This document shows, piece by piece, positions 928 through 64,000 of a DNA stretch of 64,000 nucleotides. Within the stretch, counting starts at the first letter, position 1. Each line of letters opens with the position of its first letter. The notes below the pieces were generated by a model, which saw nothing but the letters and a program-made list of their open reading frames with translations, had not been told where the DNA came from and made no database searches. Source of the stretch: Takakia lepidozioides (Eukaryota > Plantae > Bryophyta). A program made the translations under genes and the position numbers. The stretch is taken from positions 45,508,001 to 45,572,000 of the forward strand of contig CM060733.1 in NCBI GenBank assembly GCA_030704615.1, written 5' to 3'.

Positions 928-1083
928 AAATGGCCCCACAACTGCTTCTATTGGATTTCAGTTTGAATGGAATATTGCCTCATTCCAGGAGTTTTGGGGT
1001 GCATTTCATTACACTGCAAAAAAAAAGTCTGATACAGCAAAATGCATTTGAAAATATCCATATGGAGGATTCCGTTTGCCCCA

Positions 1084-4664: not shown

Positions 4665-4972
4665 GGGAGATGTGCACACAAGACTGCCAGGATGGCGTGC
4701 GGGGAAGCTCCCTGGTAGAAGGGGGTGCAACGATGGGAATGAATGCGATGCCGATTTGTCCGAGCGACGAAGCCTGATCCAAATCCAGGGAGCCAACTAT
4801 CTCAAAAATCCACAGTCAGAGTGTTAATGAACATTGTCTCCGGAATGCGGCCCCTCGTCTTTGCGTAATAACTGCCAACGGTATGCAGTCAGAAAGTGGG
4901 GGGCCGTCCGGATGATGACGGCTGAAGGGGAGAAGCCGGCACCGTGCCGTCACATTACTACCACCCCCGAAT

Positions 4973-6495: not shown

Positions 6496-6505
6496 CCGAG
6501 CGCTT

Positions 6506-9500: not shown

Positions 9501-10185
9501 GGGGCTGCAACGGAATGTGAAGGCTCCCGACAGAGCGGAAGTCTCCTCGGATTCGTCGGAGTCCGAGGAAGACACAGTGGACATTGATGCAGAGGAGAAC
9601 CCGGAATACGAGTGAGTGCAAACATTGTAAGTTTGCAAAGCCTTCTGGGTCATTTATGTCAAAGGAATTTCCCGACTGTGGTTCTCATTAGTCTCGTTGA
9701 TGATTGTCATGTGCAGGATTGCAGGGTTCGGGTCGAAACATGTAGGGCCTACACTTCCTGCCAGGAAGAATGTCCCGTTCTTTGCGAGGGCCGACTTCAT
9801 GACGAGCCCGGTGAGGGACTACTCCCTTCCTAGTTATGCAGCTAAACTCGCAAATACAGCGATTAGAAGAAGTGAGAATCCCAGTAAAGTAGAGCAGATT
9901 TTGGAGAGGGCTAGGGAGGACAGAAGGATAAGGAAAGAGTTGGCAGCAGCTCAGACAGGTAGACGAGTACGAAAGTACATATGTGATTCAGCGGATGAGA
10001 GCGACGCAGACAGGGAGGAGGACGACCCAACGGAGGTGAGATGGACAGTTCCGCAAGGGGAAGATGGGATTTTCGAAAGCCTGGCCAACGAGCAGTCCGC
10101 TGGAGACGAGAGAGGCACTGAGGGGGTGGAGGAGGAGCAGGACAGTCTAGAACAGGATGAGGATTCCGATGATTTTCAAGATTAA
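6506..10185 (+). pseudogene. Multi-exon ParB-like / beta-class amino-DNA-methyltransferase-like gene, host copy (5' end displaced, internal deletion at ~8760, frameshifts)
   Basis: ParB/Srx-like KMFFVWDGNHRLLA at ~7228-7270. Splicing intron 9313-9415 gives VEGTVLDLICGTGASMWAGRFSNRHLFAYEED. Acidic C-terminus ends at TAA 10185. Confidence 0.65.
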
Positions 10186-10322
10186 TAGAATTTTAATGAA
10201 GTCTCTGTAAATGTAAATTCTCTTCCAGAGTATATAAAGGAAATTCTGCCCGACATTCGTGACCCCTCTCCAGTGTGCATTCCAGCCACACAATCGCCCA
10301 AACCACGACGCTCCCAAAATCA

Positions 10323-11033
10323 GAAATGGGGCACCGCATTTCCAAAATTTTGGCAACCTAAAAACCTCTTTTGGAAATGCGGCACCGCATTTCCAAAACA
10401 GGGGAGGGACTAAATTTTCCATTTCATGGTTGGCATAGTAAAAAGTAATCGGCCGATTGGAAATGCGGTGCTGCATTTCCAAAATTTCCTTTGTCCACAC
10501 GCCAGTTTTGGCCTCTCCCGCTCATTGCATGGATGCCACCACGCTTACAAAGGTCGAACAAGGAGGTCGAGATGGCGGAATTGGAAATGCGGTGCCACAT
10601 TTCCTATTGGGGATGGTCGTTGTTCGAACTGCAGGCCCATCAGCAAAAATTGGCACCGCATTCCATTGTAAAAAAAAGTCGATGACGGACATGGAATGCG
10701 GCGCCGCATTTTCCAGAACGGACATCGCAATTTGTCCATTTGCCACCCTCTCACGGAATGCGGTAACGCATTCCATCGAGCTGGTCAGAAATGGGTGCAC
10801 TTTTCGAAGTGTTTGGACGGAAATGCGCACCGCATTCCCTTGTCCAAAAAGAAGTTTCATTGCCAAGCTGGAAATGCTCGCCGCATTTTGCAATGCCACC
10901 CTCGTTGTCTGTCCATTATAGACCCGTGTTGGTATTTCGTGTACCTGGACGGAAATTATGCACCACATCATTTGCCGACACTGAAATGCGGTTCATACAT
11001 TTCCATGTCGGCATGAAAATGCGGCACCGCATT
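10323..11033. repeat. Downstream cluster of family B palindromes GGAAATGCGGYRCCGCATTTCC
   Basis: About a dozen degenerate copies with irregular spacing. The last copy is interrupted by the nested element. Confidence 0.85.
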
Positions 11034-11879
11034 GAGGTTTACTATTTCATGAGCAGAAACCATGAGCCATGAGCCATGAGCCGCATGAGCCGCATGAGCG
11101 GTGAGCCGAAGTCTAAGATACGCGGATTTCATGAGCGGACTCCTCCAAATTTGGAAATGCGGCAGATTAAACAAGTATTAAAATAATAGTTTTTTATTTG
11201 ACCTTGCCGTTTTTTGGACGTTCCAGATCATGTAATGCGGCGAAGATATGTCGTCAGTAACAAGTCCGCTCATGGTTTTATAGATCCGCTCATGGAAATA
11301 AGTGACCGTGCAACGGGAAATCCAGTATACCACTGCAAAAGGACGTCGCATACTGGCCTGTATAGAGTATTCCGCGGTTTTACATGCCTTAACATTGGAA
11401 TGAAGCTGACCCTTTTGCCGCGATTGAACCAATGGAGTCTGCACCAATACAGTCTGCAGTACTTCACAATTCTGTCTTCTTCGGGTATTCGGCGGGAAAG
11501 GTTTGCAACTGAACTGGGAAATAGGGTGCCGCATTAGGGTTCGCACGTGCGAAATTTCGGAGCGGTTTGGTGTTGGCGAAGGCCGCCTCTGGGGGTACCT
11601 ACGACGATACTTGGAAATTCGGCGCCGCATTTCCTTGTCGGAGGTCGAATGAGGAGAGCAAGTTTTCGGAAAGCAGAAAAACATGAACCCTCCAACATAC
11701 AAAAATACATGCACGTGGAAACAAGTGAACGATATAGTAATATCTTAGTTCGATCAAAACAGGTTACTGGTAGGCAAGACATATGTCGGACCTTTGTGTG
11801 GCCAGAGTCTGAGGTACTGGCAGCAGTACAGTTCTACTATCCGATGGGCGTACCATTGTATGTGGACCGCAAGCCAAGC

Positions 11880-14800
11880 TCACTGGTCCCCTGGATCCAT
11901 ATTCAGAAGAGTGTGAACCTCCTGGGGGCTCAACCCTGGTGCATGTATGAAGTGATGAGTTGTGGAATTACAACGGAGTCTCTTTAGGTACACGTAGTAC
12001 AAATGCTTGCAAGGGCAGTATGATGCCCCCTTGTTCGCCATGATCTGGAAGTCGGTGCAATTGCAGGTGGGTAATTCTGAAATGGTGATGGTGTACACCT
12101 CATTGCGAACAGCTGAGCCCGCCGTGGCCATCTGATACACACGCCCGAATCCTGGTGGGGGCACTTCTGTCGAGCTCTGGATTGTACAGTTCATCCGAAG
12201 TGCATTCCCCATCCTTGTCTCGTTCACTTTTGAGGGAGGTCGCCGCCTCTTCGGTTTCCCCCAACGGTGTGTAGGATGCTTAGAGCTGTCGTGTCCCATT
12301 GTTCTTGCTCTCACAGGGGTCGGTGGTGGAGGCTGTGGAAGCGGAAATGGTGTCTGGGACGTCAGTGCGCTGCACCATCCGAAATCCTGCGGCGGTAAGG
12401 GCGTCGGCCTCAACCTGACTCAGATCGCAGCCTGGTTCCACCGGCCACACCGGGGGAGCCTCTGGCATTGTCTGTATGCCGTACTTGGGCTTTCCATACA
12501 CGCAAGTCATAATGTCGTGCCTGCAGAACCAGAACTGGGTGGTTGTCGCCTCCGCAAACTTTGCATGGACAAATCTTCCTGTAAAAGTAGGAGCAGGGAC
12601 AGCCCCATCTGGATTCCTCCTTATCATCTCTAAACAACGTTGCCGTGTATCCACACGAATTGCGGAACACCTTCCTCGAAACGACGGCTTTGTGCGAGCA
12701 ATTCTCCACTGTGAGGCAGACACAGTCGTCTCCACAATGGCTTGGCCATACTGCATAACAGCGGGCGGAATGTGGGGCAAGGGAGCGGTGGGAATTTGTT
12801 GCACGAAATCCCCGGTTGAAGGCGACGGCGATCTGGAATTTCTTGGGCTTCCACTGCTGGAAGACACATTGTGCGGCAACATGACGGGACCTCGAGGTGC
12901 TGTCCGAATGTTCCTGTCGGATCTCCAGGAATCCTCTTCGCACCCGGGTTCCTCTTCAATCCTCCGCCTGACAGGGCGAGTCCGGACGTCCCCCTCTAGG
13001 TGTTCACCTCTGCGGTGCAGAGGCGTCCCTTTGATCTTCTCTCGCAATGCTGTCGCCCATTTCACTGGATTCTTGGACCTCGAAGCTGTTCGTACCAACA
13101 ATTCCTCCCTGTCCGGCCCAAAGCCCCATTGTTTGCCGCTCAGGAACTTGTAGTACGTGGCTTGCTGCATGATTGCTCTGTCGATGTCCTCCGTTGTGGC
13201 CGTCACTACGTCCACCAGATGTGCGGCAGAAGACGCTCGCCAGGAGGAGTGGACCGATTCTGCCATATTCGTGTTCGGCATGTCCGTGTCGGAATCCAAG
13301 CACCGCTCCTAGAAGGACACAAACAATGGTGAGGGACCAATCGAAATGTCCGTAACAGAAAGACAAATGAACGAAATTGACAGCAGCCTACCTCCCGCAT
13401 GTACTGTCCGAACTGTCGATACCGAAAATGCCACCACCCCAACCAGCTGTGCAATGCTCCCAGATTGGTTGTCTCCACTGCACCTGACGTGTTCCACCAA
13501 GCCTCGATGATAGCAAACTTAACCTCCGCGTCATCAAATGTGGGTGCATCCTTCCCACGCCGTACAAAGGACACGGTGTTCAGCCTGGAATGAGCTAGCA
13601 ACAAATTTGGTAGTGTAGTGGGATAGACTCTGCATCCAATGGAATCCACAGGATCTCTCTTTCCCCTCCATTGGAACATTGGGGTCCTCACCGTACACAC
13701 GCCGCACCGCTGCCCAGTTGGCCTGAGCGTTGTCTGCCATGAATCCCCTGAAATTGGGCTCTGGCAATCCCGCCCTTGCCATCTGCTCGTTTATGCCCTC
13801 CCACAGATGCATCTCGGACTGTGTGTCCTCCCCTTTCATCTCGCAGATTGCAATCGTCATGAGCCTCTTGGAGTGATAGTCATAAACATGCGCACCCATA
13901 GTCACCCACTGATGGTTTGTAATTCGCTTGATGTGATCAAACATCACCCAAGCATTCGACAAGTTTCCAGTTGTCATGCGAGTGACCAAGTCGACTCCAC
14001 TCCCAGGCCCACACGTCGACATTTTGAAAATGTAACAACGATCGGATTCGCTGCCTTGCCCTGGAAACCTGCTACCTTGGATGTAGTCATATCCAGTCAT
14101 TCGTTTCACCTCCAGGATTGAGTACATGTCCGACCCCCTGCCGAACTCCTGCTTGCAAGATACGATGTGATTCCGCACATTCGGACTACAAACGTGCGAG
14201 ACGGACTCCAAGAGGTCACGCATCTCGTCTTCGGTCAAGGGCTCTCGGTCGGAACCATCTTCTTCAGACATGATTTTGCCAAGAGCAATCTTGTGGGCTG
14301 CCTTCAGCTGAATCTGCTTTGGTCTGGCTCCGGGGCTCAATTTCACCTCCTCTTTTATGATGTCGTGTGCTTCCTGCACAGCCTCACGCATGTTGCCTCT
14401 CGCCAAGGGGTGGCAGTGGACCCCAACGTGTATGCAAGCTCTAGTCAAGTCCGGGAGCAAATGGATTACGTAATATTGCTTGGCTCTGCACATGGACATG
14501 CACGTCGGTGGTTTCTTTGCAATGTGCACACTTGAAAGAACCCGCAGGAGCTTGGCTGGAGACAATGAATGGATGATGCGTTGTGCCAGTCCAATCCGTC
14601 TCGTTTCTCCGCCCTCCTTTGGAGAGAAAGTGGAAGCAGGTGGGATTGAGGCACCTCAGCTTCCCCGCACAGAGGACATATCGTACACGAACACCATCAG
14701 CAATTTTCGTGCTACTGGTCTTCGTCACACACCAGGGGTGTCCGTCATGCTTTCGATCCATGTCTGTTAACATCCCGGAGGCTTTCTTTGACGAAGAAAC

Positions 14801-15495
14801 AGGTGGAAACTCGAAGATGACATTGCCATCGACTTCGGGAGGCAGAAAAGTTACCTTTCTGACTGGGAATTTGGCATAGTCGAGAGCAGCAGCCAGCTCG
14901 GAGCGAGAACCATCGAGGTGATGTTGTCGTAGGAGCTGCACAATGGACCGGGTTGGAGTTATGCTCGAGGGCACATGCGTAGCACCTACAGAGACGTCCA
15001 TGCCGGATTTGAACGACCGTGTGGAGGACATGGGTACCTCAATGCAATCATCTTCCTCGTCGGAAATGTCGAATACGTCCACACGAGAAGCTATGGAGGG
15101 TCTTGACGGTCCAGGTCGGGAATGATTATCGTTGCATACCTCTCTGTTGGCAGTGGCCGCCTCTCGGTTTCCGGACTCCTTTGTGGATGGTGTGGGCAGC
15201 GACTGATTCGGAAAGGGAATGGGCATTCCCACAGCTCGGTACAGGATGGTGTCTGACGGGGGAACGTGCCATTCGATTCCGCAACCTCCGTCGTTACCTA
15301 GCACGACAATGGTCTCGTCAACCTGTCCAGGAACATCCTTCCTTTCTTCTTCCAAATAAACTGTGCCCGGTTTGAGCTTGAATTTGGAACAAAGGTAAGT
15401 TTCAGTCACTCTGCAAAGTCCTCCCTCGTTTGGGATCCAGGCTCTCCCAAGTTGCGGAGGACAGCAAACTATATAGCGTAGGAATTCGGAGCCAT
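11880..15495 (-). pseudogene. MULE transposase family B (nested copy, frameshifted)
   Basis: Near-identical to intact 55737-59344; same DDE/SWIM motifs and intron ~13310-13392. Several 1-bp indels, possibly sequencing errors. Confidence 0.88.
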
Positions 15496-15913
15496 CGAAC
15501 ACCGCACGGAGTTGGCAAGTGCGAGGTTCAGTATAGCGACAGACCAAGGCTCACAGGCACCATGCTGCGGAGTCCATCGACGATTGGAAGTCGCACATTG
15601 AAGTGGAAAGTATTGTTTCAAGCTACATGCATGAAGGTGGGAGGTTTGATTCCATAGCCAGTGTATGACAATGATGGCCGATTCGGCGACGAAATAACAT
15701 CTCCTGACAGTTTCTCCTGAGGGTGGATCCAGCAGTATTCTCGGTGCAGACAGGAACGTTCGCACTGACAAGTGCCAGGACTGCTGGTTAAAACGGTCAG
15801 ACAACCAAGTTGTGCTCATCAAGACTGGCCGCAATTGTGTTGTTTCGGAACAATGCAACCCATTCAGGTTCCAGATTTCCCGTCCCGAGTGATTCTTTCG
15901 ATTGCTGGTGGAC

Positions 15914-17535
15914 GGAAATACGGCGCCGCATTTCCGTATTGCATCTTGGTCATGCAACAGAGCGACGGAAATGCGGCACCGAGTTTCCGTCCGGGGAAAC
16001 CTTTATACTCTCCAGAACGGAAATGCGGTAACGCATTTCCATCCAGCAAGCACGGTATGTGAAGGTGGAACGGAAATGCGGTACCGCATTTCCGTTCTGA
16101 TTGAGATTTATGAACAACGGGAACAGAAATGCGGCACCGCATTTCCGTCCGAGTCGCACTTTTCGACATTCCAGAACGGAAATGCGGCGCCGCATTTCCA
16201 TTTTGTATCTGATGCATGGAGCTGAGGGATAGAAATGCTGCAGCACATTTCCGTCCTTAAAAGACATTCATACTCTCCAGAACGGAAATGCGGTACCGCA
16301 TTTTCATTCAACAAGCACGGTATGTGAAGGTGGAACGGAAATGCGGTACCGCATTTCCGTTCTGATTGAGAATTATGAACAACGGGAACAGAAATGCGGC
16401 ACCGCATTTCCGTCAAAGTCGCACTTTTCGACATTCCATAAAGGAAATGCGGCGCCGCATTTCCATTTTGTATCTGATGCTGGAGCCGAGTAAGATTTCG
16501 ACAGCTTCATACAGCGCGCCGTTGAGACATTCACACTATCCAGAACGGAAATGCGGCACCGCATTTCCGTTGACTGACTGAAATCGTGAACTATCTGAAC
16601 TGAAATGCGGCACCGTATTTCCATCCGAGTCGCACCTACCATCATTCCAGAACGGAAATGCGGCACGCATTTCCGTTCTGACTGAAAATCGTGAACATCG
16701 GAACTGAAATGCGGCAGCGCATTTCCATCCGAGTCGCACCTCCCAACATTCCAGAACGGAATGTATTAGATTAAAAGGGAAATGCGGCACCGCATTTCCG
16801 TTCTGATGAAATATCCTGAAACATCGGAATTGAAATGCGGTACCGCATTTCCGTCGGAGTCCCACCATCCGACATTCCAAAACGGAATGCGGCGCCGCAT
16901 TTCCGTTTTGTATGTGAGGAATGGAGCTGTGGAACGAAAATGCGGGAAGGCATTTCCGCCAGCGTCAGACGTTAATACTCTACAGAACGGAAATGCGGTA
17001 CCGCATTTCCATTCTGACTGAAAATCGTGCGCAACGGGTACAAAAATGCGGCACCGCATTTCCGTTCGAGTCGCACCTTCCGACATCTCGAACGGAAATG
17101 CGGCGCCGCATTTCCGTTTTGTATATTCGGCCTGGAGCTGTGCTACGGAAATGTGTTGCCCGCATTTCCATCCATGTGAGACCTTCACCTTTCCAGACCG
17201 AAATGCGACACCGCATTCTGTCCAGGTGAGACCTCTATACTTTCCCGAACGGAAATGTGGCACGGCATTTCCATCATCAACTAACGTATGTGAAGTGGGA
17301 ACGGAATGCGGCGGCCGCATTTCCCTTCTGAATCTCATACATGGAGCTGTGGGACGGAAATGCGGCACCGTATTTCCGTTCAACAACTAAGGTATGTGAA
17401 GGTGGAACGGAAATGCGGTGCCGCATTTTCTTCCAACAAGTACGGATGTGTAGCTTCGTGATGGTACTTAACGGAAATGCGGCGCCGCATTCGCATTCTC
17501 GCTCCAACTCATCAGACGCTGGGACGGAAATGCCT
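15914..17535. repeat. Family B palindrome array between transposase and ParB-MTase gene, 53-bp period
   Basis: Centres at 15924, 15977, 16029, 16082, 16135, 16188, 16241, 16294 and onward. 22-bp palindromes with ~31-bp spacers that recur in higher-order (~5-unit) blocks. Confidence 0.95.
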
Positions 17536-17928
17536 TGAAATGTGAACACGTGGAGCAACGGAATTGCTGCACATGTCGCACTCTATCTGACTGAAGGGGC
17601 ATGAGGCGGCGCGGCCTGACCGTTGGATAATGATTTTTGATTTTCGGACGGCGGGCGTACCCTCAACGATTCGAATTTCGTAATGACGCAAACTCCACGA
17701 GGAGACACTTTCGTCCAACCTTTCGAACCCAAGTGGTGCATCACCGCCGTTTCATCTACTTTGTCTCGTGTCTCCTCAGTCACCCCTCTCGCGCCCTTTC
17801 CATCTGCACTCTTTGCCCCTTTTCCCTCTCTCTGTTCTTCTTATGCTCGAACCTGAGAGGGGGGAGTTCGTGCACCAGACAGGAGACCTCGTCGCAAGCT
17901 CCGGAAATTATACTTCGGACGGAGGCCA

Positions 17929-20900
17929 ATGCCGAAGGGGAGGAAGCAGATGCGTCTACAGGAGGAGATTGCCATCTCCGAGCAGCAGGCCACTCAGGCA
18001 ACCCAGCCACCAGTGAGAGCTCCATGCGATCGGGCTGCGCGCAGCTGATCGAGCACCGAACCCCCCATTTTGCTTCTGTAATTCTTAGACTGAATGCTAG
18101 GAGACTTGAATGCAGAACATGTTTGCATGCCTAACAGGAAAGGTGGACGTGCTGGAGGGATCGCAGGAATCCGAAGAGCCGCAGGAAGAGTCCGAGGAGC
18201 TAGCTGCAGCACGTACACCCACCCGATCCCCGAGCGCGGGTACTCTCCCGGGGCCTAGCCCTCTGCGATTCAAAGACGCGTCTTCGAAGGGCAAGTTCAA
18301 AGTCTCAGAGATCGACTCGCGTTCTTCGATCATGGAGAATCGCCAGCAGGGGTCGGGCCCTTCTCCAGCAAAGTCGAAGAAGAAGCAGCCCGTCCTCTAC
18401 TGGCTTCTGAACCGGCTCAGGCCGATTCACCCCCCCCAACGCGAATGAAGCAGCAGGGTAGAAGACAGATTCAATTGCAGCAGACACCTTCACCTGCAAG
18501 GATGAGGAAGCAGAAGGCAATCAGGGCGACGGCCGAACAATCTCCCGCAAACCGCAAACCCGCTTCCACGAGCTGAAGCTCAGTTCCTGGAGGATTTCCC
18601 GCATGCAGATGTGGGGCCGACTCTGCTGCAGCTCGAAGGCAATGGGATCGACCGTTGATCTCGATTTGGTACCGGAGGAGGGTGCTGTGCCGCTGAACGT
18701 TCGCAGGCAGACCTCACCACCGATGAGCTAGCAGGCCCGGAGGAGGCCTCTGCATGGCAGAATTGCCCTCACACAGGCCCCAGAGTGCAGCTCCAGTTGA
18801 GGATGCTCCACCGCTGCTCAGCCACTACCGGCACCTACAGACATGTCTCCGGAGGATTTCAAAGTGCAGCGGATAAATGTTGGAGGAGACACACAGTAGC
18901 ATTGGCAGAGTTCTGGGCAGCAGGGTATTCCAGCGGACTCTTCGAATCCCACTCTGTCGCATGTCTCCTTTCCCATCGTCAGGCAGGCCCTTCCCGGAGA
19001 TGTGGATAAGCTCAAGTTCGCATTTCGAGAAGGGTACCGTCTGGGATCGGCAGCGTTTTATACGTTTCCATAGAGAATGAGGACGGCGAAACCCGTGGAC
19101 CCCACTGCCGATGAATTGTCAACGTGATACCCACTGGCACACTCGCAACCACGAATTCGAGGCGACGCTGAAGGGTGATCCCGACTTCGGTGGGCATATG
19201 TCGGAAAATGTTCTTTGTGTGGGACGGGAATCACCGACTTCTCGCTGGTGTGGAGTACATCAAGCAGAACCATGCCAAGCACATTGGCTGGCATTACATG
19301 GTGGAGTGTGTCATCCTCAAGGTGAAGGCGGCAGACTCCTCCCTCCTCAAGAATGCCATGGCGGACCTCAACTCGTAAGATACTCATACCCTCCCTAGCA
19401 CATTCGAAATGCGTGTGCGCATTTCGGTTTCCATTCTGGTTTGATTCCGTGCTTCCGTGTACTGAACTGGAGAGTGTGCCTGCAGGGTCACTGAGAATGC
19501 GTACGTGCATACCCCACATGGCACATATGCTGTACAGGGTGAGGGAAACTGGTCTTACTGATCCGCAGATGTTTGCGGAATGCTGGAGCCGAGCTCATTC
19601 AGAAAGCCGTTGCAAAAACAGGACCGGACATGGTATCGTCTCACTATGGATGGATGTGGAGGTGATATATTCGAAGTAAGTCGTAGCTCCAATTTCCCTC
19701 TGGCTCATCCTTCCCCAATTTTCAGTAATGTTTCCACATGAATCGAATGTAACGCTTCTGCATGTTTTGTTGGCAGTCAAACATCAAGCTGGGATATTGG
19801 CCCATGCCAAACGCTTCTTGCAATGGAAAGTGAGGGGCTAAAGGTGCAAAACGTTGCAGTCTATTGGACGAGCACTTGAAGGAAGCCGGTTCAATCCAGA
19901 ACCAAATACAAGTGCAAGCTTGTGAAGCTGGTGTCAATTGCAGATCCGGGCAAACATTTCGCGGGTTGAATATTACTTCATCATGCCCCCGAGATTGCAA
20001 AACACTCTTCTCGGGCCATGCAGCCGACCATGCAATTGGAAACTTGCATCACCTTCTCAACGTCATGTGTGGAGGCGAAAGAGATGGTGAGGTTTCAATG
20101 CACTGAATTTCCTTCCTATGGTGCAATAGCCACTCTCTTCGGCATGCTGTCACATGTCGGCATTCGGATCGGAATATGGCAGAGCACGGTGGCTATCGAT
20201 CTGGAATGCACCGAGAGTTGCATAAGGACAATGTGGTCTTTTCCACTGGAGTTTCCGACCCTGCAGTGGATGTGTGGCTCTACCGTATGACGTTGGTGGT
20301 TCTCCAAGGTAATTCAGGTACTTCCCCAGATTTGCTTATTCTGACATGATCCCTGAACTGCTACGTGACAATGCATTTGGGAATGGCAGTTAATGTCGAA
20401 TGCGAAGGAGCAAGTCGTAATGCACACAATTCGTTCTGCGCTTGTACGTCAAATGGGAGTGGACAAGCACAGACATTGTGGACTACTACAACGTGGACTC
20501 GTTTCAGATGTGCGTACAAGGACAACTCTTCTTTCGCCAGAGTAGCTACAGACAGCAAGAAGGAGCGGGAGTTACACATCAGGAGGGAGGGGCGGAAGCT
20601 GCAATGCGAAATTGTTTACACAGGTGAAGGCACAGCTGCCCTTGTATGCGAAGCCTGGTTACGAGGTTTGTCTCGGAAATGCGCCACCGGCATTCGCATT
20701 TTTATGTTTTCGTGGGGCACTCTGGCGAGTAGGTTGGTCCATATCTTTTCTCACGCATGCTGACTGCCTTGCAGGTATATGAAATACGTGCTCCTTCAGA
20801 AACCAAGCCCTGGCTCAAGAGCCCCCGTTCTTCATGGCTTGGACCGGGCGGGGCCCTAAACTGTGTCTACTACACACCCGAGATGCAGAAGACAATGGCA

Positions 20901-23147
20901 TCCGCTCGCGCTCATCTCGTTGGTGCCCGTGGTACCGGAACATGTCCTGCCGGTATTGTTGACGATCTGAGAAAGATCTGCACGCTCTTGGCAGAAGAGA
21001 GAGAGGAAAGGGACGTGTCCCTGCTGGGCCAAAGTCGGCAAAGGAATCTGCTGCTCTGGGAAGAATCCAGAAAGGCAGGCTGAGATGGCATCAAAAGACG
21101 GTGGATGCAGCTGTGGTCAGGGCCCAATAGTAATGGGGGTCGTAAGAAGAGGACTCGCCAGTTCAAGGAGCAGCTGTTGTTAACCGGACCGAAATGTCCA
21201 ACAGCCAAAACGAGAAGCAGAACAAGAAGAGGGTGAGGAAGAGGACTCCGATGGAGACTTTGCAACCAGCCCACCCCCCCAAACGCAGGCTGCCTCCCCT
21301 GTGCCCACCGTTGTCGAGAGGCACGAGAACTGGCTCGGCAAAGAAGGCACTCTTCAACCCCCCAGGGGGGCACCCTTTCGAGCCGGTGGAAATGAAGAGG
21401 CCGAAAGTGGCTCCCGAAAGTAGTCCAGTGTGTAAATGAGAGTTTCTTGGCGGCTTTGGATGGACGGGCAGCCAAGTTGGCATACATGAAGACCATGGAG
21501 GGTCTGAAGGGCAGAGCACTGAAGAAGGCGACTGCCGAAGAGCCTTCCGACACCCCAGGATTTCAGAATATGGTCTCGTTCTTTGAGAGGGTGTGTGCAG
21601 ACAAGGATTGTAGGAGGGGCGGAAATGCCACCGAGTGGTCTTGCGATATGATCATCTTGGATATTCCGGACGGAGAGCCTGTGGAAGGACTGCAAGCTTT
21701 GCCATCTTGGAACAGGTACTCGGAGGACTTTTGGAAGAAAGGATTCGGGCTTGCCCGCATGGTGTTGGACGACAGAGGCTGTGTGGTTGTCCTGGCGAGC
21801 AGAGGAAAAAACACTCAGACAGGAATTGCGAAGTGGACCCGCAAGAGCGCCGTCCCGATTCTGAAAAAGAAGTGGACGTGCATCAACACACTGGGCCTTC
21901 GGTCGGAAGGGAAGAAGGTGATTACGACACTGGCACTCGTCCATTCATTTGCTTGGGTGTTTTCAAATGCGGTGCCGCATTCGGTTTCTAATCGTTTTCC
22001 CCCTGTGTATGCAGACGAAGCAGTTCGATGCATACTGCTTTGTGAAGGAAACTCCACCTTTGCTTTCCGGAAGGAGGGAGGAAAGGTTGACCCGAACTGC
22101 GACCCACTCGATTACGACGTTCTGTTCAACAACGTTCCCAAGGAACTTCTCCCTCATAGCCTCACTTCAACGGAACCCCTGCGGTACTCACGGACTCGGA
22201 GCCCTGCCTTCATTCAGACAATTATGGAGACATGCACAGACGTGGAGGGCACAGTGCTCGACCTCATCTGTGGGACAGGTATGCAGAATCTTGATCTCTG
22301 CTGTTCTGCAAATTCTCGTTAGGATGTAGTTCGCAACATCTGAAGCGCCATGTGGTAATGTGTGGATGGCATTGTAACAGGTGCCTCAATGGGCTGGGCG
22401 GTTTTTCCGACCGGCACCTCTTTGCCTACGAGGAGGATTCATCCGTGTGGGGATCCCATCTGGAGGGGCTGCAACGGAATGTGAAGGCTCCCGACAGAGC
22501 GGAAGTCTCCTCGGATTCGTCGGAGTCCGAGGAAGACACAGTGGACATTGATGGAGGAGAACCCGGAATACGAGTGAGTGCAAACATTGTAAGTTTGCAA
22601 AGCCTTCTGGGTCATTTATGTCAAACGAATTTCCCGACTGTGGTTCTCATTAGTCTCGTTGATGATTGTCATGTGCAGGATTGCAGGGTCCGGGTCGAAA
22701 CATGTAGGGCCTACACTTCCTGCCAGGAAGAATGTCCCGTTCTTTGCGAGGGCCGACTTCATGACGAGCCCGGTGAGGGACTACTCCCTTCCTAGTTATG
22801 CAGCTAAACTCGCAAATACAGCGATTAGAAGAAGTGAGAATCCCAGTAAAGTAGAGCAGATTTTGGAGAGGGCTAGGAGGACAGAAGGATAAGGAAAGAG
22901 TTGGCAGCAGCTCAGACAGGTAGACGGGTACGAAAGTACATATGTGATTCAGCGGATGAGAGCGACGCAGACAGGGAGGAAGACGACCCAACGGAGGTGA
23001 GATGGACAGTTCCGCAAGGGGAAGATGGGATTTTCGAAAGCCTGGCCAACGAGCAGTCCGCTGGAGAGAGAGAGAGGCACTGAGGGGGTGGAGGAGGAGC
23101 AGGACAGTCTAGAACAGGATGAGGATTCGGATGATTTTCAAGATTAA
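17929..23147 (+). pseudogene. Multi-exon ParB-like / beta-class amino-DNA-methyltransferase-like gene, nested copy (full extent, many indels)
   Basis: Predicted start MPKGRKQMRL. Low-complexity N-terminus, then FFVWDGNHRLLAGVEY (~19210-19260), CDMIILDIPDG (21642-21674, motif-IV-like) and TCTDVEGTVLDLICGTG (~22230-22280, motif I). Multiple GT-AG introns; stop at 23147. Confidence 0.65.
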
Positions 23148-23284
23148 TAGAATTTTAATGAAGTCTCTGTAAATGTAAATTCTCTTCCAGAGTATATAAA
23201 GAAAATTCTGCCCGACATTCGTGACCCCTCTCCAGTGTGCATTCCAGCCACACAATCGCCCAAACCACGACGCTCCCAAAATCA

Positions 23285-24095
23285 GAAATGGGCACCGCAT
23301 TTCCAAAATTTTGGCAACTCTAAACCTCTTTTGGAAATGCGGCACCGCATTTCCAAAACAGGGGAGGGACTAATTTTCCATTTCAATGTTGGCATAGTAA
23401 AAAGTAATCTGAATTGGGAATGCGGTGCCATTTCCAAAATTTCCTTTGTCCACACGCCAGTTTTGGCCTCTCCCGCTCATTGCATGGATGCCACCACGCT
23501 TACAGAGGTCGAACAAGGAGGTCGAACCGACATGGCGGGATTGGAAATGCGGTGCCGCATTTCCATATCTGGGGATGGTGGTGTTCGAACTGCAGACCCC
23601 ATCAGCAAAAACTGGTACCCGCATTCCATTGTAAAAAAAAAGTCGATGACGGACATGAAATGCGGCGCCGCATTTCCAAACGGACTCGCAATTTGTCAAT
23701 TTGCAGACCCTCTCTCGGAAATGCGGTAACGCATTCCATCGCGCTGGTCGGAAATAGGTGCACTTTTCGAAGTGTTGGACGGAAATGCGGCACCGCATTC
23801 CCTGTCCAAAAAGAAGTTTCCATTGCCAATCTGGAAATGCGTCGCCGCATTTGCAATGCCAACCTCGTTTTCTGATCAATTTATAGACCCGTGTTGGTAT
23901 TTCGTGTACCTGGACGGAAATGATGCACCGCATTTTCTGTCCACATGGAAATGCGGTGCCGCATTTCGATGTCCGACATGGAAATGCGGTGCCGAATTTC
24001 GATGTCCGACATGGAAATGCGGCGCCGCATTTCAAGCCGACATGGAAATGCGGCGCACCCATTTCATGCCGACATGGAAATGCGGTGCCGCATTT
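23285..24095. repeat. Downstream family B palindrome cluster ending in a 31-33 bp tandem
   Basis: catggaaatgcggtgccgcatttcgatgtccga units with centres 23957, 23990, 24023, 24054 and 24086. Confidence 0.88.
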
Positions 24096-24524
24096 CAATG
24101 TCCGACATGGCGTTACTCTGGTATATTCTTGACACATGACTCACATACCGGTTACTCTGCTTTATTCAACCAGACAGACAAATTGTAGAAATGAGACATC
24201 AAATTGTAAACAGTGGGCCAAATCCGAGAGTTATTCAACACAATGAAACACAGTCATACAGAAGTGAGGTACATTCCAGGGCACACTCCAGGGCACATTT
24301 AAATTTCCCCCGTACAGGATCCTGGACCGATGAAGATTGGCTGCTGCATGAATGTAGCCGTTTCAGTTTCCTACCCTGCCATGCAAACTATGGGCAGTCA
24401 CTGCCAGGTGGGCCGATAGCCACTGGACACGACGAAGTCCATCCCCTCTTCGATGTAAATGCGGCGCCGAATTTCCATCCGGGGGGATGGACTTCGGTGG
24501 CAGATCTCAAACTATAACTTGTTG

Positions 24525-25286
24525 ATGAGAAAGATGTATGGCTTCATCCACCGCTGGCGTGATGAACACGTTCCACCTCCGTCGGTGGGTACGTGTGACC
24601 CAGATGCTCCATTTTGGAGGCCGGACTGCTCTTCCGCTTCGTATCATTTCCAAAATCTAAGGGCTTCGTAGCTGTCCGCAAGGTCATCGGCATCCAAGTC
24701 GTCCTCAGGTCCTCCTTTGCAAGGATGCCGTGCTTCCGGAACCGGGACGACTGCCCCTTTGGAGGCATCGATTATGCAATGTATTCGGCCACATCGGGAG
24801 ACATTGTTATCTGGTACACAGATTACAGAGAAGATACTGGTTCGATTGTGGAAACATTGGTGGCTTTTGAGTATATCGTAGGCCACTACGCCTTCGAGCG
24901 GGGTGACGATCTTGGTTTGAGGAGTCCGTGGCTCCTGCGCATCCTCGATTCCGATTTTCCCAGCTACGACGGTCACCCATGCAGAAGAAGGCGCACTGCT
25001 ATGCTGTTGCGGTGGAACTGCTGCCACTGGACGTGGGTGGACTCCATCGGAGACCTATTCTCCTCGAGGAGTGCGCTCCTCTTCTCCATTGTATGGGGAC
25101 ATTCGCATTGGTGTGGACGACAAAAACGTGAAGATTTCCATATTCGATGGTGGTATGATTGAAGGGCAGGACATTGTGGTGAACATCACTAGGGGCGGTA
25201 CAACGGCTGCAATCGACTTTACATGGAGGAGCCCCAGGACTCATGAGCTAGTTCTGAGAGCAGTCGAAGTCCCATTGACAACGTGA
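24525..25286 (+). pseudogene. Unknown transposon cargo protein (ORF3), frameshifted
   Basis: MPCFRNRDDCPFGGIDYAMY...RWNCCHW...LYGDIRI...ELVLRAVEVP. Conserved in both B copies and paralogous to 26050-26750. Confidence 0.55.
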
Positions 25287-25694
25287 CTTGTATTCAGTAG
25301 GCACAGGGCTCAAGATTTGAGGGCACAATCAGCACAGTAGACGTGCTTCAAATGCAATTCATGTGGATCAATAAAAACCTCATTGTGCCCTCTTTTTATT
25401 CTATTCTGTGTCCATTGTTCCGAGAATGCGTCATTGCTCATTTCGTTTGGGATTGGGAGTGTGGGTGAACTTTGCAAATGGCTGGTAGGCTGAAATGGGC
25501 CCCCATTGTACAGAGCAGTACCACCCTACCATTCGCGAAACATTGCCTTTCAATATATAATTCTAAATAACATTGCCGAACCTCCTTCATGGGGAGGTCC
25601 TTCTCCCCCTATGACCGTGGCACCCTAAACCCTATTCCCGCGGACACTCATTTCCGGAAAATAGTGCTGCTCATGTTTTTTTCCACACTTACGA

Positions 25695-25749
25695 CTCTGC
25701 TCATGGCTCATGCCGCTCATGGCTCATGGCTCATGAAATAGCAGCCCCC
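25695..25749 (-). repeat. Right TIR with subterminal CATGAGC repeats, nested B copy
   Basis: ctctgctcatggctcatgccgctcatggctcatggctcatgaaatagcagccccc. Confidence 0.9.
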
Positions 25750-26049
25750 ACCGCATTTCCTTGTCCGACATGGAAATGCGGTGCCGCATTTCAATGTCCG
25801 ACATGGCGTTACTCTGGTATATTCTTGACACATGACTCTCATACCGGTTACTCTGGTATATTCATCCGGACAGACAAATTGTAGAAATGAGACATCAAAT
25901 TGTAAACAATGGGCCAATTCCGACAGTTATTCAACAGAATGAAACACAATCATACAGAAGTGAGGTACGATGGGTTTATTGATCGGACACGATGTCTCAC
26001 ATTTACCAACTGCAGACAAAACTAAGCCCTTCCTCCTTCTACATGGGCT

Positions 26050-26750
26050 TCACCAAGTCGACGGAACTTCGATACCCCTCAAAACAAGCTCATCACTGTT
26101 GCGGCACCTCGAGGTAAACTGCAATTCGGTCGTCCTGCTGCCCTTACTGGAGCCGACGACAATGTCATGTCCATCAATGATACCACCATCATACATTGAC
26201 AAGGTCACTGTGGGCCTCATGTGCCCGTGCGATTCGTCTTCGCAACTCAGCCGAATGTCTCCATACACTGGAAGAGCGGAGTGATCTGCACGTATATAGT
26301 TTTCCCCGGTGCCGTCCTCCCTGGTCCACTGGCAGCAGTTCCAGCGCCAAAGCGAGGCCGTGCGTGATCTGTCCGGCATCCCTTTCCAGCTTGGTATATC
26401 GAGGTCAACAATTTTCAGGACCCACGGACCGCATTGACCCTCGCCCTCACCTCGCTCAAAGCGGTAATAGCCCTCCAGATACTCCATTGCGCGCAAAGAC
26501 TCTTGCTTGATTCCAGCAGCGTCTGTGAAAACAGAGAGCCAGACAATGATGTCTCCTGATTCTGGTTTGAACATAGCATAATCGTGGCCATGATAAGGGC
26601 AGTCGGCTGGATTTCGGCGGCACGGCATCTTGAAAAAGAGTAGCGGAGTACGCTCAATGACAGCAGCTCCCGGATGGAGGAGGAGCAGCGCGGTGGCTGG
26701 AAAAAGTTCAAGCTAACGCTGCAATTCCTCACAAACACTCCAGGGCACAT
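26050..26750 (-). CDS. Unknown transposon cargo protein (ORF4), paralog of ORF3
   Basis: 192-aa open frame 26050-26628 (MPCRRNPADCPYHGHDYAMF...RWNCCQW...VYGDIRL...ELVLRGIEVP) aligns collinearly with ORF3. The 5' part is probably shifted into frame 26415-26750. Confidence 0.55.
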
Positions 26751-26976
26751 TTAAATTTCCCCCCTACAGGATCCTGGACCGATGAAGATTGGCTGCTGCA
26801 TGAATGTAGCCGTTTCAGTTTCCTACCCTGCCATGCAAACTATGGGCAGTCACTGCCAGGTGGGCCGATAGCCACTGGACACGACGAAGTCCATCCCCTC
26901 TTCGATGTAAATGCGGCGCCGAATTTCCATCCGGGGGGATGGACTTCGGTGGCAGATCTCAAACTATAACTTGTTG

Positions 26977-27740
26977 ATGAGAAAGATGTATGGGTTCATC
27001 CACCGCTGGCGTGATGAACACGTTCCACCTCCGTCGGTGGGTACGTGGGACCCAGATGCTCCATTATTGGAGGCCGGACTGCTCTTCGCTTCGCATCATT
27101 TCCAAAATCTAAGGGCTTCGTAGCTGTCCGCAAGGTCATCGGCATCCAAGTCGTCCTCAGGTCCTCCTTTGCAAGGATGCGTGCTTCCGGAAACCGGGAC
27201 GACTGCCCCTTTGGAGGCATCGATTATGCAATGTATTCGGCCACATCGGGAGACATTGTTATCTGGTACACAGATTACAGAGAAGATACTGGTTCGATTG
27301 TGGAAACATTGGTGGCTTTTGAGTATATCCTAGGCCACTACGCCTTCGAGCGGGGTGACGATCTTGGTCTGAGGAGTCCGTGGCTCCTGCGCATCCTCGA
27401 TTCCGATTTTCCCAGCTACGACGGTCACCCATGCAGAAGAAGGCGCACTGCTATGCTGTTGCGGTGGAACTGCTGCCACTAGACGTGGGTGGACTCCATC
27501 GGAGAGACCTATTCTCCTGAAGGAGTGCGCTCCTCTTCTCCATTGTATGGGGACATTCGCATTGGTGTGGACGACGAAAACGTGAAGATTTCCATATTCG
27601 ATGGTGGTATGATTGAAGGGCAGGACATTGTGGTGAACATCACTAGGGGCGGTACAACGGCTGCAATCGACTTTACCTGGAGGAGCCCCATGACTCATGA
27701 GCTAGTTCTGAGAGCAGTCGAAGTCCCATTGACAACGTGA
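26977..27740 (+). pseudogene. Unknown transposon cargo protein (ORF3), host copy
   Basis: Near-identical to 24525-25286; TGG>TAG stop at ~27480. Confidence 0.55.
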
Positions 27741-28148
27741 CTTGTATTCAGTAGGCACAGGGCTAAAGATTTGATTGCACAATCAGCACAGTAGACGTGC
27801 TTCAAATGCATTCATGTGGATCAATAAAAACCTCATTGTGCCCTCTTTTTATTCTATTCTGTGTCCATCGTTCCGAGAATGCGTCATTGCTCATTTCGTT
27901 TGGGATTGGGAGTGTGGGTGGATTTTGCAAGTGGCTGGTAGGCTGAAATGGGCCCCCATTGTACAGAGCAGTACCACCCTACCCATTCGCGAAACATTGC
28001 CTTTCAATATATAATTCTAAATAACATTGCCAAACCTCCTTCATCGGGAGGTCCTTCTCCCCCTATGACCGTGGCACCCTAAACCCTATTCCCGCGGACA
28101 CTCATTTCCGGAAAATAGTGTTGCTCATGTTTTTTTCCACACTTACGA

Positions 28149-28203
28149 CTCTGCTCATGGCTCATGCCGCTCATGGCTCATGGCTCATGAAATAGCAGCC
28201 CCC
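28149..28203 (-). repeat. Right TIR, host B copy
   Basis: Identical to 25695-25749; followed by atatttttt. Confidence 0.9.
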
Positions 28204-29910
28204 ATATTTTTTATAAGGGACAGCAAGCCTGGAAATACTTACACTGTTCCAAAGTCATTGGCACACCTCTTACCTATACGGACAAGGAATTCAGGGAGTT
28301 CACTCATTTTGCTTGCATGCGCTTACAGCAAGTTGTGAAGTTTAAGCTTCTAGACATGGTCGGCCAACACTGTATGCCACGCAGAATTCCTGAGACGCCC
28401 AAGAAGATCAGACCACCAAAAAATCGCAGGACTGATGAGGGGTGACGGTTAGTTAGTTAGGTGGTTAGAACAACTTACGGGGGAGATTAGGCAGGAGGAC
28501 AACAAGAAGGGGACTTTTGCTGCAGAAAACTTCTGGAGAGGAGAGGAAGCGGAGAGCAGGAACGGGATCGAGGATGGAGATATGATCAGTAGATGCTTGA
28601 TACAGGGTAAGTTGTAGGGATATACTATAGAGCAGGATAGGGACACCACGGCTTCAGTCTGATACATGATAGATCTTAATCTGATACTTATTCGATACAA
28701 TCACAATGTGTAGAGAGAGACTTGAGTGAAGCTGTGGAATGAATGGATGCGTGAATGGAACCTGATAGATATTGAAGCGATCTTATGCTTAAGTATATAC
28801 AATAAGGTAAATTGCGAACATGAAGGCAAGAAGAACTACGAACAAGAAGCACAACCATGATACACTAGTTGTAGGTCATGACTGATTGTTCTGAGCGGGC
28901 TGAGTGCTTAGAGATATCCAACTCTTCTATCTTGGAGTTTCCACCTCGGATAGCGAAGGGATGGGTGAGTAAAAGCCGCTCGACACTTACCCAGGAGAAT
29001 GCGATGGGATGGTGGAATATTAACAGTATCGTGCTATCAGGGTAGCTAAAAACAAAGCTTGGTTGTTGGATTGGTGCTCCAAGGGCACTGCACTGTAAGT
29101 TTCAGCTGTCTCCCTGCTCAAATACTGTTCATGCGATGATTCCTTCCCTCCTTCATTGCATTGTTCCCTCCTGCTCTGCACTTGCAATGCAATTGCAGCA
29201 CCTGAGCCGAGAGATGACATCCCCTGCGTTGCTTCCACGCCAGACTTACGTCTATTTCATGAAAGGTCCCAAGAGCCCCTCGAAACTGCCATGTCAGCAG
29301 GATGTAGTGGTTATGGACACTAGTGTAGTGGTTAATATGTACCCTAATGTTTTTTTTTAAAAAAAAAACGATGTGTCCACATCCTATCTCCGCCATTGGA
29401 TGGACGTGGACCGTCGGATGCAACTTGGCACTTGGACATCCTCGTGTCTCTCACGCGAGCGTACTAAGTGTGTGTGCTTTGGTTTTTGAGCTTCCTAGGC
29501 TTGTGAGGGCGTTTTGTTGTGAGTGACCCGGGCGATTGTGGGAGAGTAGAGAGAAAGAAAGACCCCCACGTACTACTCGCTATGTGTGGAATGGCCCAGT
29601 GCGAAGGAGTACTCGTTTGAGGGAGAGGAGTCCAGTTCACATGGGGGTGGCAGAGAAGGAGTCCGGCGACTTGGAGACCAACCCGGCGGAGGATAGTGGA
29701 GCGACTCCTAGTGCTGACTACTCAGCAAAGAGCGAGAGCACGGACGAGGAGGAAGACCAGAGTGCTGAGAAGATCGTCGTTCGCATGACTCCTTCCAAGC
29801 GGCCCTTAAGGACATCCACCCCAACCAAGGAGGGTAACAAGCCCGCGGTGGGATCCCTAAGACCCATTCTGTCTCTGTCTCTATCTCTCTCCCTCTCTCA
29901 CCCTTAGTTC

Positions 29911-37500: not shown

Positions 37501-39560
37501 CGAATGGAGTCTGGCAAGCCTTTGAGTGCTGTACAATTGATGAGCCACAGTTGTTTGAGATGAATCAATGCTCCGATGGAATCAGGCAGGCCTTTGAGTG
37601 CTATACAAGTATTGAGCCACAATTTTTGGAGATGAATCAATGCTCCGATGGAATGAGGCAACCTCTGCAAGGTCCGACAAGTAGCGAGGTCCAACTCTTC
37701 GAGCTCTTTCAACAGCCCCAAACAATCAAGCAGGGCTTGTAAGTTGTTGGAACAACCATGAAGGCTGAGGACTTTTAACTTTGCAAGATTACCAATGGAG
37801 TCGTGAAGGTGTTCAGTTGCTAAACAAGTCTTGAGCCCCATGACATTCAAGTATTGGAGATGAGTCAATGCTCCGATGGAATCAGGCAACCTCTCCAAGC
37901 TCGTACAAGAAGAGAGGTCCAACTCTTTGAGCTCTTTCAACAGCCCCAAACAACGAGGCACGACTTGTATGTTGGAACAACCCTTAAGGCTGAGGACTTT
38001 TAACTTTGTAAGATTACGAATGGAGTCTGGCAGGCCTTCGAGTGCTGTACAATTCTTGAACCACAATTTTTGGAGAAGAATCAATGCTCCGATGGAATGA
38101 GGCAACCTCCCCAAGCTCGTACAAGAAGAGAGGTCCAACTCTTCGAGCTCTTTCAACAGCCCCAAACAATCAGGCACGACTTGTATGTTGGAACAACCCT
38201 CAAGGACGAGGACTTTTAACTTTGCAAGATTACGAATGGAGTCTGGCAGGCCTTTGAGTGTTGTACAATTATTGAGCCACAATTTTTGGAGATGAATCAA
38301 TGCTCCGATGGAATCAGGCAGGTCTTTGAGTGCTGTACAATTCTTGAGCCTCAAGTATTGGAGATGAGTCAATGCTCCGATGGAATCAGGCAACCTCTCC
38401 AAGCTCGTACAAGAAGAGAGGTCCAACTTTTCGAGCTCTTTCAACAGCCCAAAACAATCAGGCACGACTTGTATGTTGGAACAACCCCCAAGGTAGAGGC
38501 TTTTCAATTTTGCAACTTTACGAATAGAGTCTGGAAGGCCTTTGAATGCTGTACAATTATCGAGCCACAATTTTTGGAGATGAATCAATGCTTCGATGGA
38601 ATGAGGCAACCTCTCCAAGCTCGTACAAGAAGAGAGTTGCAACTCTTCGAGCTCTTTCAACACCCCCAAACAATCAGGCACGGCTTGTATGTTGGAACAA
38701 CCCTTAAGGACGAGGACTTTTAACTTTGCAAGATTACCAATGGAATCTGGCAGGCCTTTGAGTGCTGTAGAGCCACAATCCTCCGATGGAATCAGGCAAG
38801 CCTTTGAGTGCTGTACAATTCTTGAGCCACAATTTTTGGAGATGAATCAATTCTCCGATGGAATCAGGCAAGCTCTCCAAGCTCGTACAAGAAGAGAGGT
38901 CCAACTCTTCGAGCTCTTTCAACAGCCCCAAACAATCAAGCACGACTTGTATGTTGGAACAACCCTGAAGGACGAGGACTTTTAACTTTGCAAGATTACC
39001 AATGGAGTCTGGCAGGCCTTTGAGTGCTATACAATTATCGAGCCACAATTTTTGGAGATGAATCAATGCTTCGATGGAATCAGGCAACCTCTCCAAGCTC
39101 GTACAAGAAGAGAGGTCCAACTCTTCGAGCTCTTTCAACACCCCCAAACAATCAGGCACGACTTGTATGTTGGAACAACCCTTAAGGACGAGGACTTTTA
39201 ACTTTGCAAGATTACGAATGGAGTCTGGCAGGCCTTTTAGTGCTGTACAATTATTGAGCCACAATTTTTGGAGATGAATCAATGCTCCGATGGAATCAGG
39301 CAACCTCTCCAAGCTCGTACAAGAAGAGAGGCCCAACTGTTCGAGCTCTTTCAATTGGCCCCAACAATGAGGCACGACTTGTATGTTGGAACAACCCTCA
39401 AGGTTGAGGACTTTCAACTTTGCAAGATTACCAATGGAGTCTGGCAGGCCTTTGAGTGCTGTACAATGCTTGACAATCATCTTTTGAAGCATCGTTAGCT
39501 CTCCAATCGAATGTGGAAGCATTTCAAGTCTCGAACACCTAGATAGTTCTATCTCCTCCA
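34575..39560 (-). repeat. LRR coding tandem array: 72-bp units in 216-bp three-LRR super-repeats
   Basis: LKELEELDLSSCTSLERLPDSIGA / LIHLQKLWLNNCTALKGLPDSIGN / LAKLKVLVLEGCSNIQVVPDCLGL repeated over ~5 kb (roughly 65-70 LRRs by length). Confidence 0.95.
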
Positions 39561-63958: not shown

Positions 63959-64000
63959 ACCTTGTCATTGTTTTTTTTCATGTGAAAATCGGCCACATAG

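Follow-up and report, generated by a model that had tools for sequence, protein, structure and literature searches.

A transposon-borne methylase-like gene of Takakia lepidozioides with an eroded motif IV: a candidate pseudo-methyltransferase beside phased palindromes

Introduction

What an amino-methyltransferase-like protein with an atypical catalytic motif might do for the mobile element that encodes it is the question raised by a 64,000-nucleotide stretch of the bryophyte Takakia lepidozioides (GenBank assembly GCA_030704615.1, contig CM060733.1, positions 45,508,001 to 45,572,000 of the forward strand), hereafter called the window, in whose numbering positions are given. The window holds a DNA transposon that we assign to the Mutator type, E2, as well as the parts of E1, an older member of that family, and a related sister element. 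E1 and E2 both carry an accessory gene, the protein of which comprises about 1,000 residues with a methylase-like domain at the C-terminal end and a DGNHR domain upstream of it (Table 1). A preliminary description of this DNA had proposed a beta-class amino-methyltransferase-like domain, partly hidden by an intron, in which the catalytic motif IV reads DIPD. On our best reading, to which we give a rough probability of 0.45, the gene is under purifying selection and encodes a likely pseudo-methyltransferase, and this transposon-borne protein would bind the phased palindromes of its own element and aid the activity or movement of the latter.

Fold and class of the methylase-like domain

The arrangement tested was the beta-class order, namely motif IV, target recognition domain (TRD), motif X, motif I, and motif II. 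The equivalent of motif IV was located in CDMIILDIPDG, the stretch VEGTVLDLICGT was read in the sequence with its end at 22278, and RHLFAYEED was encoded by the exon downstream of the intron 22279-22380. A profile-profile alignment with phage ParB-methylases extended over 168 columns with 16% identity and a score of 44.9 (E 1.5e-5, probability 79%), as compared with 18.8 for the best of 30 column shuffles, and placed DIPD opposite DPPY, with motifs X, I, and II following as in the beta class. The ESM Atlas features of the window's own stretch likewise gave 30 of 30 matches in N6_N4_Mtase-bearing sets (0.90-0.93). Both the proposed class of the domain and the position of DIPD at motif IV were thus borne out. 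Profile and structure searches had been named as the means of checking the fold, and besides the phage ParB-methylases they returned M1.HpyAVI (E 0.0024) and M.RsrI (E 0.044) when the family profile (alignment A2) was compared with the PDB.

Homologous proteins proved to be few. A search of 1.84 billion representatives yielded 14 proteins, 13 of which were family members, the other (P0012) being an unrelated repeat protein that was excluded, and a near-length search yielded five proteins including two new ones. The sole named homolog (P0014) is from the fern Adiantum nelumboides. Its Atlas model gave TM scores of 0.69-0.71 with N6_N4_Mtase models, and the two best-ranking rows were clusters in which ParB_N fusions abound. 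A model of P0014 made by us was weak (predicted local distance difference test, pLDDT, 54.3), its top Foldseek rows being CcrM and M1.HpyAVI at E 0.03-0.05. DNA methyltransferase matches among the PHROG families were also obtained for P0014 (E 2.9e-5) and P0007 (E 0.0015). The PDB was empty by single-sequence search, and no relatives were found in genome contigs, by longer-protein searches, or by pattern scans of metagenome and viral contigs with alignment A5.

Erosion of the catalytic motifs

Motif IV has the consensus (D/N/S)-P-P-(Y/F/W), the final residue of which stacks on the target base, while the Phe of the FxGxG of motif I packs against the adenine of S-adenosylmethionine (SAM) (PMC7544214). 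The double change of SPPY to APPA abolishes the activity of the 4-methylcytosine (4mC) writer N4CMT (PMC8885841). In the plant family, neither Pro2 nor an aromatic residue at position 4 of motif IV was present in any of the 18 readable homologs, comprising 10 protein clusters and eight of the 15 loci with a motif IV exon match (the other seven matches did not extend to the motif in frame). Position 4 was occupied by D, E, S, T, N, G, R, or A, and even Pro3 varied, as seen in DISD of a diverged copy in run X7 and DVST of P0004. Among the phage controls, DPPY or DPPF was found by a simple pattern in 57 of 67 loci. The leaning toward a dead or altered catalytic role, as well as the atypical character of motif IV, was supported when motif IV was surveyed across homologs, and the DIPD type turned out to be general to the family and not a quirk of a single copy.

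Motifs I and X were eroded as well. The Phe of motif I was missing in all eight intact sequences, and its first Gly was kept in only three of them; a Phe does occur at that position in L073, a decayed copy. The His of motif X, which in N4CMT binds the cofactor ribose (PMC10406627), was replaced. Motif IV has mostly retained Pro3, motif I its T-G, and motif II its acidic residue, and in our own alignment these fall on cofactor-contacting residues of N4CMT (PMC10406627). Since the base-stacking aromatic residue is missing, the protein is likely a pseudo-enzyme, in which methyl transfer would have been lost and the SAM pocket partly retained. As a side observation, a diverged subfamily in the same organism (loose ends in runs X5 and X6) has the consensus W-R-G-x-x-E-K before motif X, from which this copy differs at 22199.

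A sequencing error for DIPY was ruled out as the source of DIPD, as no variant at 21669 was among the differences listed and the homologs agree. A contig of run X6 covers 21560-21715 with no difference. The diverged X7 copy differs from the window at 19 positions, 12 of which are third positions of codons, and 10 of its 18 changed codons are silent compared with 22% expected (P 0.002); DIPD is nonetheless changed to DISD. The reading frame thus appears to be conserved while motif IV drifts, which points to a pseudo-enzyme.

These data bear directly on the quite unlikely alternative that the protein is an active, non-canonical methylase writing 4mC or 6-methyladenine (6mA) at the palindromes, or acting on another substrate, with another aromatic residue, perhaps a conserved Trp, holding the base. 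Such an enzyme would account for the residues that persist, which in motif IV are Asp1 and, in most members, Pro3, in motif I the T-G, and in motif II the acid. The phage enzyme L001, which reads DLPY, implies that Pro is dispensable at position 2, and active 4mC enzymes have been recruited twice by eukaryotes (10.1101/2021.02.12.428880, PMC8885841). However, position 4 was without an aromatic residue in 18 of 18 homologs and freely variable, the losses in motifs I and X described above likewise speak against it, and the Trp behind motif IV is also present in L001 and therefore represents no new compensation.

Introns, reading frame, and transcripts

The claim that motifs I and II can be seen only after splicing held for motif II; motif I was legible in the unspliced sequence because the split codon encodes Gly either way. 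The GT-AG intron proposed at 9313-9415 was recovered, its counterpart in the E2 copy being 22279-22380. The copy in which it had been described as that of the host proved to be E1, that is, the older copy of the same transposon, which lacks the DIPD exon. A second intron within the domain (21918-22014) had been overlooked; translation runs through it without meeting a stop codon, and the frame is put right by a 1-base gap at 22049, so that the intron is masked in this copy.

An intact homolog locus, L082, contains eight GT-AG introns of 83-116 bases, the removal of which gives a single open frame of about 985 residues from the DGNHR domain to the methylase-like domain. The positions and phases (0 and 1) of its last two introns are identical to those of the window copy, in support of the proposed spliceosomal introns, and in several homologs called without introns the match breaks off at the same two points. 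In the runs X8 and X13, which were taken as RNA runs by guess, no contig crossed either of the two methylase-domain introns. The RNA check proposed for the 9313-9415 splice thus gave no joining contig, while the place and phase of the intron were found conserved in L082, and the predicted splice at 22279-22380 rests on its GT-AG ends, the frame, and this conserved position. A single X13 contig (n = 1) skips 20085-20184 and 20292-20386, matching two predicted introns upstream. Apart from this, contigs of the same two runs of up to 2.9 kb match the window at the WDGNHR stretch only (19203-19244); more distant members of the DGNHR family appear to be transcribed in the same organism.

Both window copies of the gene contain frameshifts. 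The breaks at 22049, 22389, and 22402 were missing from the short-read contigs of runs X3, X5, X6, and X7, and are therefore assembly noise or confined to this copy. Run X5 placed 13,247 contig pieces on 6.4 kb, which fits a many-copy family and gives no copy number.

DGNHR domain and recurrence of the gene layout

The DGNHR domain of E1 shares 47% identity with that of L082 over 108 residues, and FxWDGNHRL is invariant in alignment A7, partly through the choice of the search pattern. WDGNHR resembles the ParB/Srx signature. Neither Pfam nor a single-sequence search of the PDB gave a match to this domain. Based on the motif and the ParB fusions among the neighbors of the methylase domain, we consider the DGNHR domain to be probably ParB-like.

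A search with the DGNHR pattern retrieved 92 metagenome loci, of which 54 were distinct and 49 related. A methylase-like exon was found 2.1-4.4 kb downstream in 14 of the 26 distinct loci having at least 4.5 kb of downstream sequence, and a transposase in eight of the 16 having at least 9 kb upstream. Where distinct loci had a transposase match (n = 12), it was always upstream (12/12) and mostly divergent (10/12). The same gene layout was thus found in other plant-like contigs. As the metagenome loci are mostly decayed and come from few samples, they may represent few species.

This recurrence is difficult to reconcile with the possibility, which we regard as very improbable, that the element has captured a gene of its host, or carries a Pack-MULE-type passenger, with no role for the element, the odd motif being a product of decay. 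Both window copies are indeed broken, most metagenome copies are decayed, and the longer contigs of more distant DGNHR genes in the RNA-type runs could derive from host genes. Nevertheless, the gene is full length, its location next to the transposase is unchanged across distant genomes, silent changes are in excess, and the same odd motif is found in the intact 985-residue frame of L082.

Palindrome arrays and their possible binder

The palindrome GAAATGCGG-YR-CCGCATTTC is repeated between the transposase and the accessory gene of E2 as well as 3' of the latter (Table 1). Its arms are 94% identical among the array units as compared with 60% for the spacers. Together with the variant of the sister element, 96 matches with up to three mismatches were counted, whereas 100 shuffles gave at most one, and no match was present in 28200-52800 or 60200-64000. 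The central CG is retained in six of the 28 sites and replaced by CA, TG, or TA in 20; 49 of 56 CGs in the arms are retained. Three palindromes fall within the gene, each of them in an intron; introns account for 18% of its length (P 0.006). The array of the sister element has the arms AATTCGG/CCGAATT and a 53-base period, and both arms have changed in step, with T/A in 20 of 22 sister sites versus G/C in 22 of 28. When the regions upstream of 24 metagenome loci were searched for arrays, a clear palindrome repeat was detected only in L107, where six sites precede the DGNHR exon compared with at most one in 200 shuffles. In that locus, from another genome, the palindrome repeats (L107:1560-2450) have the core of the sister element and a spacing of 75 and 127 bases. 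The palindromes appear to bear the marks of a protein-binding site, and do not indicate the identity of the binder.

The mechanism that we propose starts from a phage or bacterial ParB-methylase fusion as the origin of the gene. The accessory protein would be loaded on the palindromes in a ParB-like manner and may have an anti-silencing or transposition-helper role, as VANC does. A bolder version, which we consider unlikely, is that a widespread Mutator lineage of seed-free land plants uses such a fusion as a self-recognition machine, with a ParB-like clamp on parS-like palindromes spaced in a five-helical-turn phase and a rebuilt methylase fold that shields CGs from the 5-methylcytosine (5mC) of the host or writes private 4mC/6mA, which would amount to anti-silencing of prokaryotic origin.

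A somewhat unlikely alternative leaves the arrays to the transposase, with the dead methylase fold of the accessory protein serving as a host-chromatin scaffold or an inactive methylase partner like METTL14 or MTA9. The array stands directly upstream of the transposase in both the element and its sister, the two transposases differ (63-72% identity) just as the palindromes do, and eroded motifs such as EPPL and NALW mark inactive partners (PMC7544214). Furthermore, transposases are sequence-specific activators of their own copies (10.64898/2026.08.24.746577). On the other hand, palindromes also occur 3' of the accessory gene and within its introns, those of L107 adjoin the DGNHR exon with no transposase match in 3 kb upstream, and no second, active methylase that could serve as its partner was seen in the element.

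Returning to a pseudo-methyltransferase that binds its own palindromes, several observations weigh against it. As for the fold, Pfam N6_N4_Mtase (PF01555), a search for which the preliminary description had suggested, had no match in the window frames or the 13 homologs. AlphaFold gave a pLDDT of 34.6 for the read-through window frame and our model of P0014 was also poor, with no Foldseek match at E 0.001 or better (best E 0.03) and middling VIA Z scores. ParB/Srx profile tests of the DGNHR domain, which count for the E1 reference and alignment A7, were negative or weak throughout, with only weak single-member matches to DUF1015 (E 0.08) and a ParB-like PHROG (E 0.43). With respect to the loss of catalysis, the Asp of motif IV persists in almost every intact member, as would be necessary for catalysis, and the homologs were found with the window sequence as the seed, so that like motifs were favored. 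Concerning the palindromes, the array units arise by duplication and the CG counts are hence not independent events, the 3.9 kb of L082, the only homolog locus that is intact, are free of the palindrome, and the 12-base core was matched in only four of the 92 metagenome loci, most of which are CpG-depleted (median CpG observed/expected 0.27). In addition, the arrays also precede the transposase, which could be the binder.

The carrier transposon and its neighborhood

E2 was inserted in the 3' palindrome array of E1, and is flanked by the target duplication (C)ACCGCATT of 8-9 bp at 11025-11033 and 25749-25757. Mutator-like elements (MULEs) are characterized by terminal inverted repeats and target duplications of 8-11 bases, and their DDE transposase has a SWIM finger as well as a CxxH that follows the second Asp. 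In the E1 transposase, candidate D, D, CxxH, and E motifs were located by eye at 57273, 57480, 57567, and 57953. The SWIM match of the transposase (E 0.017) was below the Pfam cut-off, and neither a Pfam MULE match nor a PDB match was obtained. The assignment to Mutator thus rests on the ends, the duplication length, and the candidate motifs. A CACTA element was ruled out as the carrier, since the Tnp2 at 50.1-52.6 kb is a neighbor and a CACTA match was found in none of 16 loci.

Table 1. Coordinates of the predicted features in the window.
Feature	Position	Strand	Remarks
Sister element	249-6500		Left end at 249; cut off where the E1 accessory gene starts
E1 accessory gene copy	6506-11033	+	89-95% identical to the E2 copy
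E2, complete DNA transposon, putative Mutator type	11034-25749		14.7 kb; ends inverted, target site duplicated; 89-98% identical to the parts of E1
Left terminal inverted repeat	11034-11130	+	GAGG start, then CATGAGC repeats
E2 Mutator-like DDE transposase	11928-15550	-	Frameshifted; divergent from the accessory gene
Palindrome array	15915-17493		28 sites, mostly 52-54 bases apart; interval between transposase and accessory gene
Accessory gene	17600-23150	+	At least 8 predicted introns; start undefined; frameshifted in the assembly
DGNHR domain	18895-19374	+	WDGNHR at 19220-19237; ParB/Srx-like by motif only
Predicted introns	19375-19485, 19676-19776, 20087-20184, 20296 or 20309-20389, 20624-20774, 21918-22014, 22279-22380, 22574-22678	+	
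Methylase-like domain, part 1	21630-21917	+	DIPD codons 21660-21671, then conserved P-x-W-N
Phase-0 GT-AG intron inside the methylase-like domain	21918-22014	+	Same position and phase in L082
Motif X and motif I exon	22015-22278	+	Family consensus W-R-G-x-R-E-K-x-P; VLDLICGT
Phase-1 GT-AG intron	22279-22380	+	Splits the last Gly codon of motif I; equals 9313-9415 in E1
Motif II exon	22381-22573	+	RHLFAYEED equivalent and acidic tail
3' cluster of the same palindrome	23334-24096		13 sites in 23280-24110; last ones 31-33 bases apart
Small second accessory open reading frame (ORF)	24623-25280	+	Unknown family
Right terminal inverted repeat	25660-25749	-	Ends in C run
E1 right part	25750-28203		Followed by target site ATATTTTTT at 28204-28212
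Related small ORFs in E1	26053-26676, 27141-27734	-, +	Near the right end, opposite orientations
E1 left part: transposase, array, left end	52812-60195	-	Inverted, apart
E1 transposase counterpart	55446-59344	+	Two long ORFs

E1 is split at one point into the part from 6506 onward and the inverted part 52812-60195, with about four bases missing; flipping 6506-52811 would rejoin them, and the separated halves share the 9-base target ATATTTTTT. CACTACAG is located at the break at 52805. E1 was split either by an inversion or by mis-assembly. In its accessory gene copy, the equivalent of 20793-21730, including the DIPD exon, is missing at 8760. The transposase of the sister element lies at 1458-4796 on the minus strand. 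The small ORFs form a family of about 200 residues with 41-47% identity between paralogs, two being present in E1 and one in E2, and the paralog at 26050-26622 had no Pfam or PHROG match.

The remainder of the window contains an immune-receptor gene with NB-ARC, winged-helix, and very long leucine-rich repeat (LRR) parts (34596-41437, minus strand), in which the LRR part consists of 216-base units in tandem, about 4.9 kb in all; a LINE-type endonuclease and reverse transcriptase (43106-46647, plus strand) with a 983-residue open frame; the frameshifted CACTA (Tnp2) transposase (50100-52600, plus strand); and the N-terminus of a third transposase (61066-62391, minus strand) with 27% identity to that of E1, upstream of which a non-palindromic 116-base tandem array extends over 63272-64000. 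The NB-ARC-LRR gene, the LINE, and the CACTA transposase are indicative of a land-plant genome.

Comparison with known systems and significance

The closest description concerns the giant Plavaka and Mutator elements of red algae, in which PF01555-SET and ParB-2OG accessory genes (PAG2 and PAG3) lie beside inverted-repeat arrays (10.1101/2025.02.11.637652). The shared traits are a giant DNA transposon, a methylase accessory domain, a ParB-like part, and repeat arrays proposed as self-binding sites. By description, PAG2 and PAG3 differ in being two proteins, a methylase with SET and a ParB with 2OG, with PF01555 detected, whereas here a single protein of a land-plant host is invisible to Pfam and has an eroded motif IV. 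No Pfam match to SET or 2OG was obtained in the window frames scanned. The ParB_N + N6_N4_Mtase fusions that ParB-terminase loci of phages and bacteria encode (e.g., PV036419.1, L002; PMC4738411) resemble the plant gene in the order of a DGxHR-type domain and a beta-class methylase. These fusions, however, retain DPPY and FxGxG, have about 415 residues, and are intron-free, while the plant gene has about 550 extra residues between the domains, and the N-terminal domains of the two gave no profile alignment.

Methylase folds with an eroded motif IV are also known from DIRS1, METTL14, and MTA9, that of DIRS1 likewise being transposon-borne (PMC4738411, PMC7544214). The methylase domains of DIRS1 elements are likely inactive, and an algal clade is derived from phage ParB-terminase loci (PMC4738411). 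Unlike the plant gene, the DIRS1 domain derives from PCIF1 and belongs to the polyprotein of a retroelement, and METTL14 and MTA9 are proteins of the host that pair with an active subunit. VANC, which binds motifs in the tandem repeats and introns of VANDAL elements (PMC5735166), is comparable as the product of a Mutator-type accessory gene; its element, too, has short motifs specific to the family, which lie in non-coding parts such as tandem repeats and introns. The plant gene resembles it in layout. For VANC, binding and demethylation have been demonstrated, and its motifs are of 8-9 bases and non-palindromic. MpDN4MT1 and rotifer N4CMT are likewise prokaryotic-type beta-class amino-methylases in eukaryotes; they are active host 4mC writers with SPPY kept (10.1101/2021.02.12.428880, PMC8885841, PMC10406627), in contrast to the transposon-borne plant family devoid of this motif. 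The accessible portion of PMC12344493 contains nothing on a transposon-borne DGNHR-methylase family, and no account of Mutator elements of land plants with a gene that joins DGNHR and methylase-like parts was found in a literature search that left outside RepBase, most subscription papers, and the supplements of the red-algal preprint and PMC4738411.

Few transposon accessory proteins are understood, and according to the Bostrychia preprint (10.1101/2025.02.11.637652), binding and modification of an element's own sequence have been demonstrated for VANDAL only. If the protein were inert and the transposase bound the arrays, what remains would still be a well-defined new accessory gene family, but little more. 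The present family provides a second, directly testable candidate for self-recognition, in land plants. Besides the protein itself and the intact homolog L082, a candidate site is available, as is a sister element whose site differs. The family also enlarges the prokaryote-type amino-methylase folds of plants by a lineage that Pfam does not detect, which bears on claims of 4mC and 6mA.

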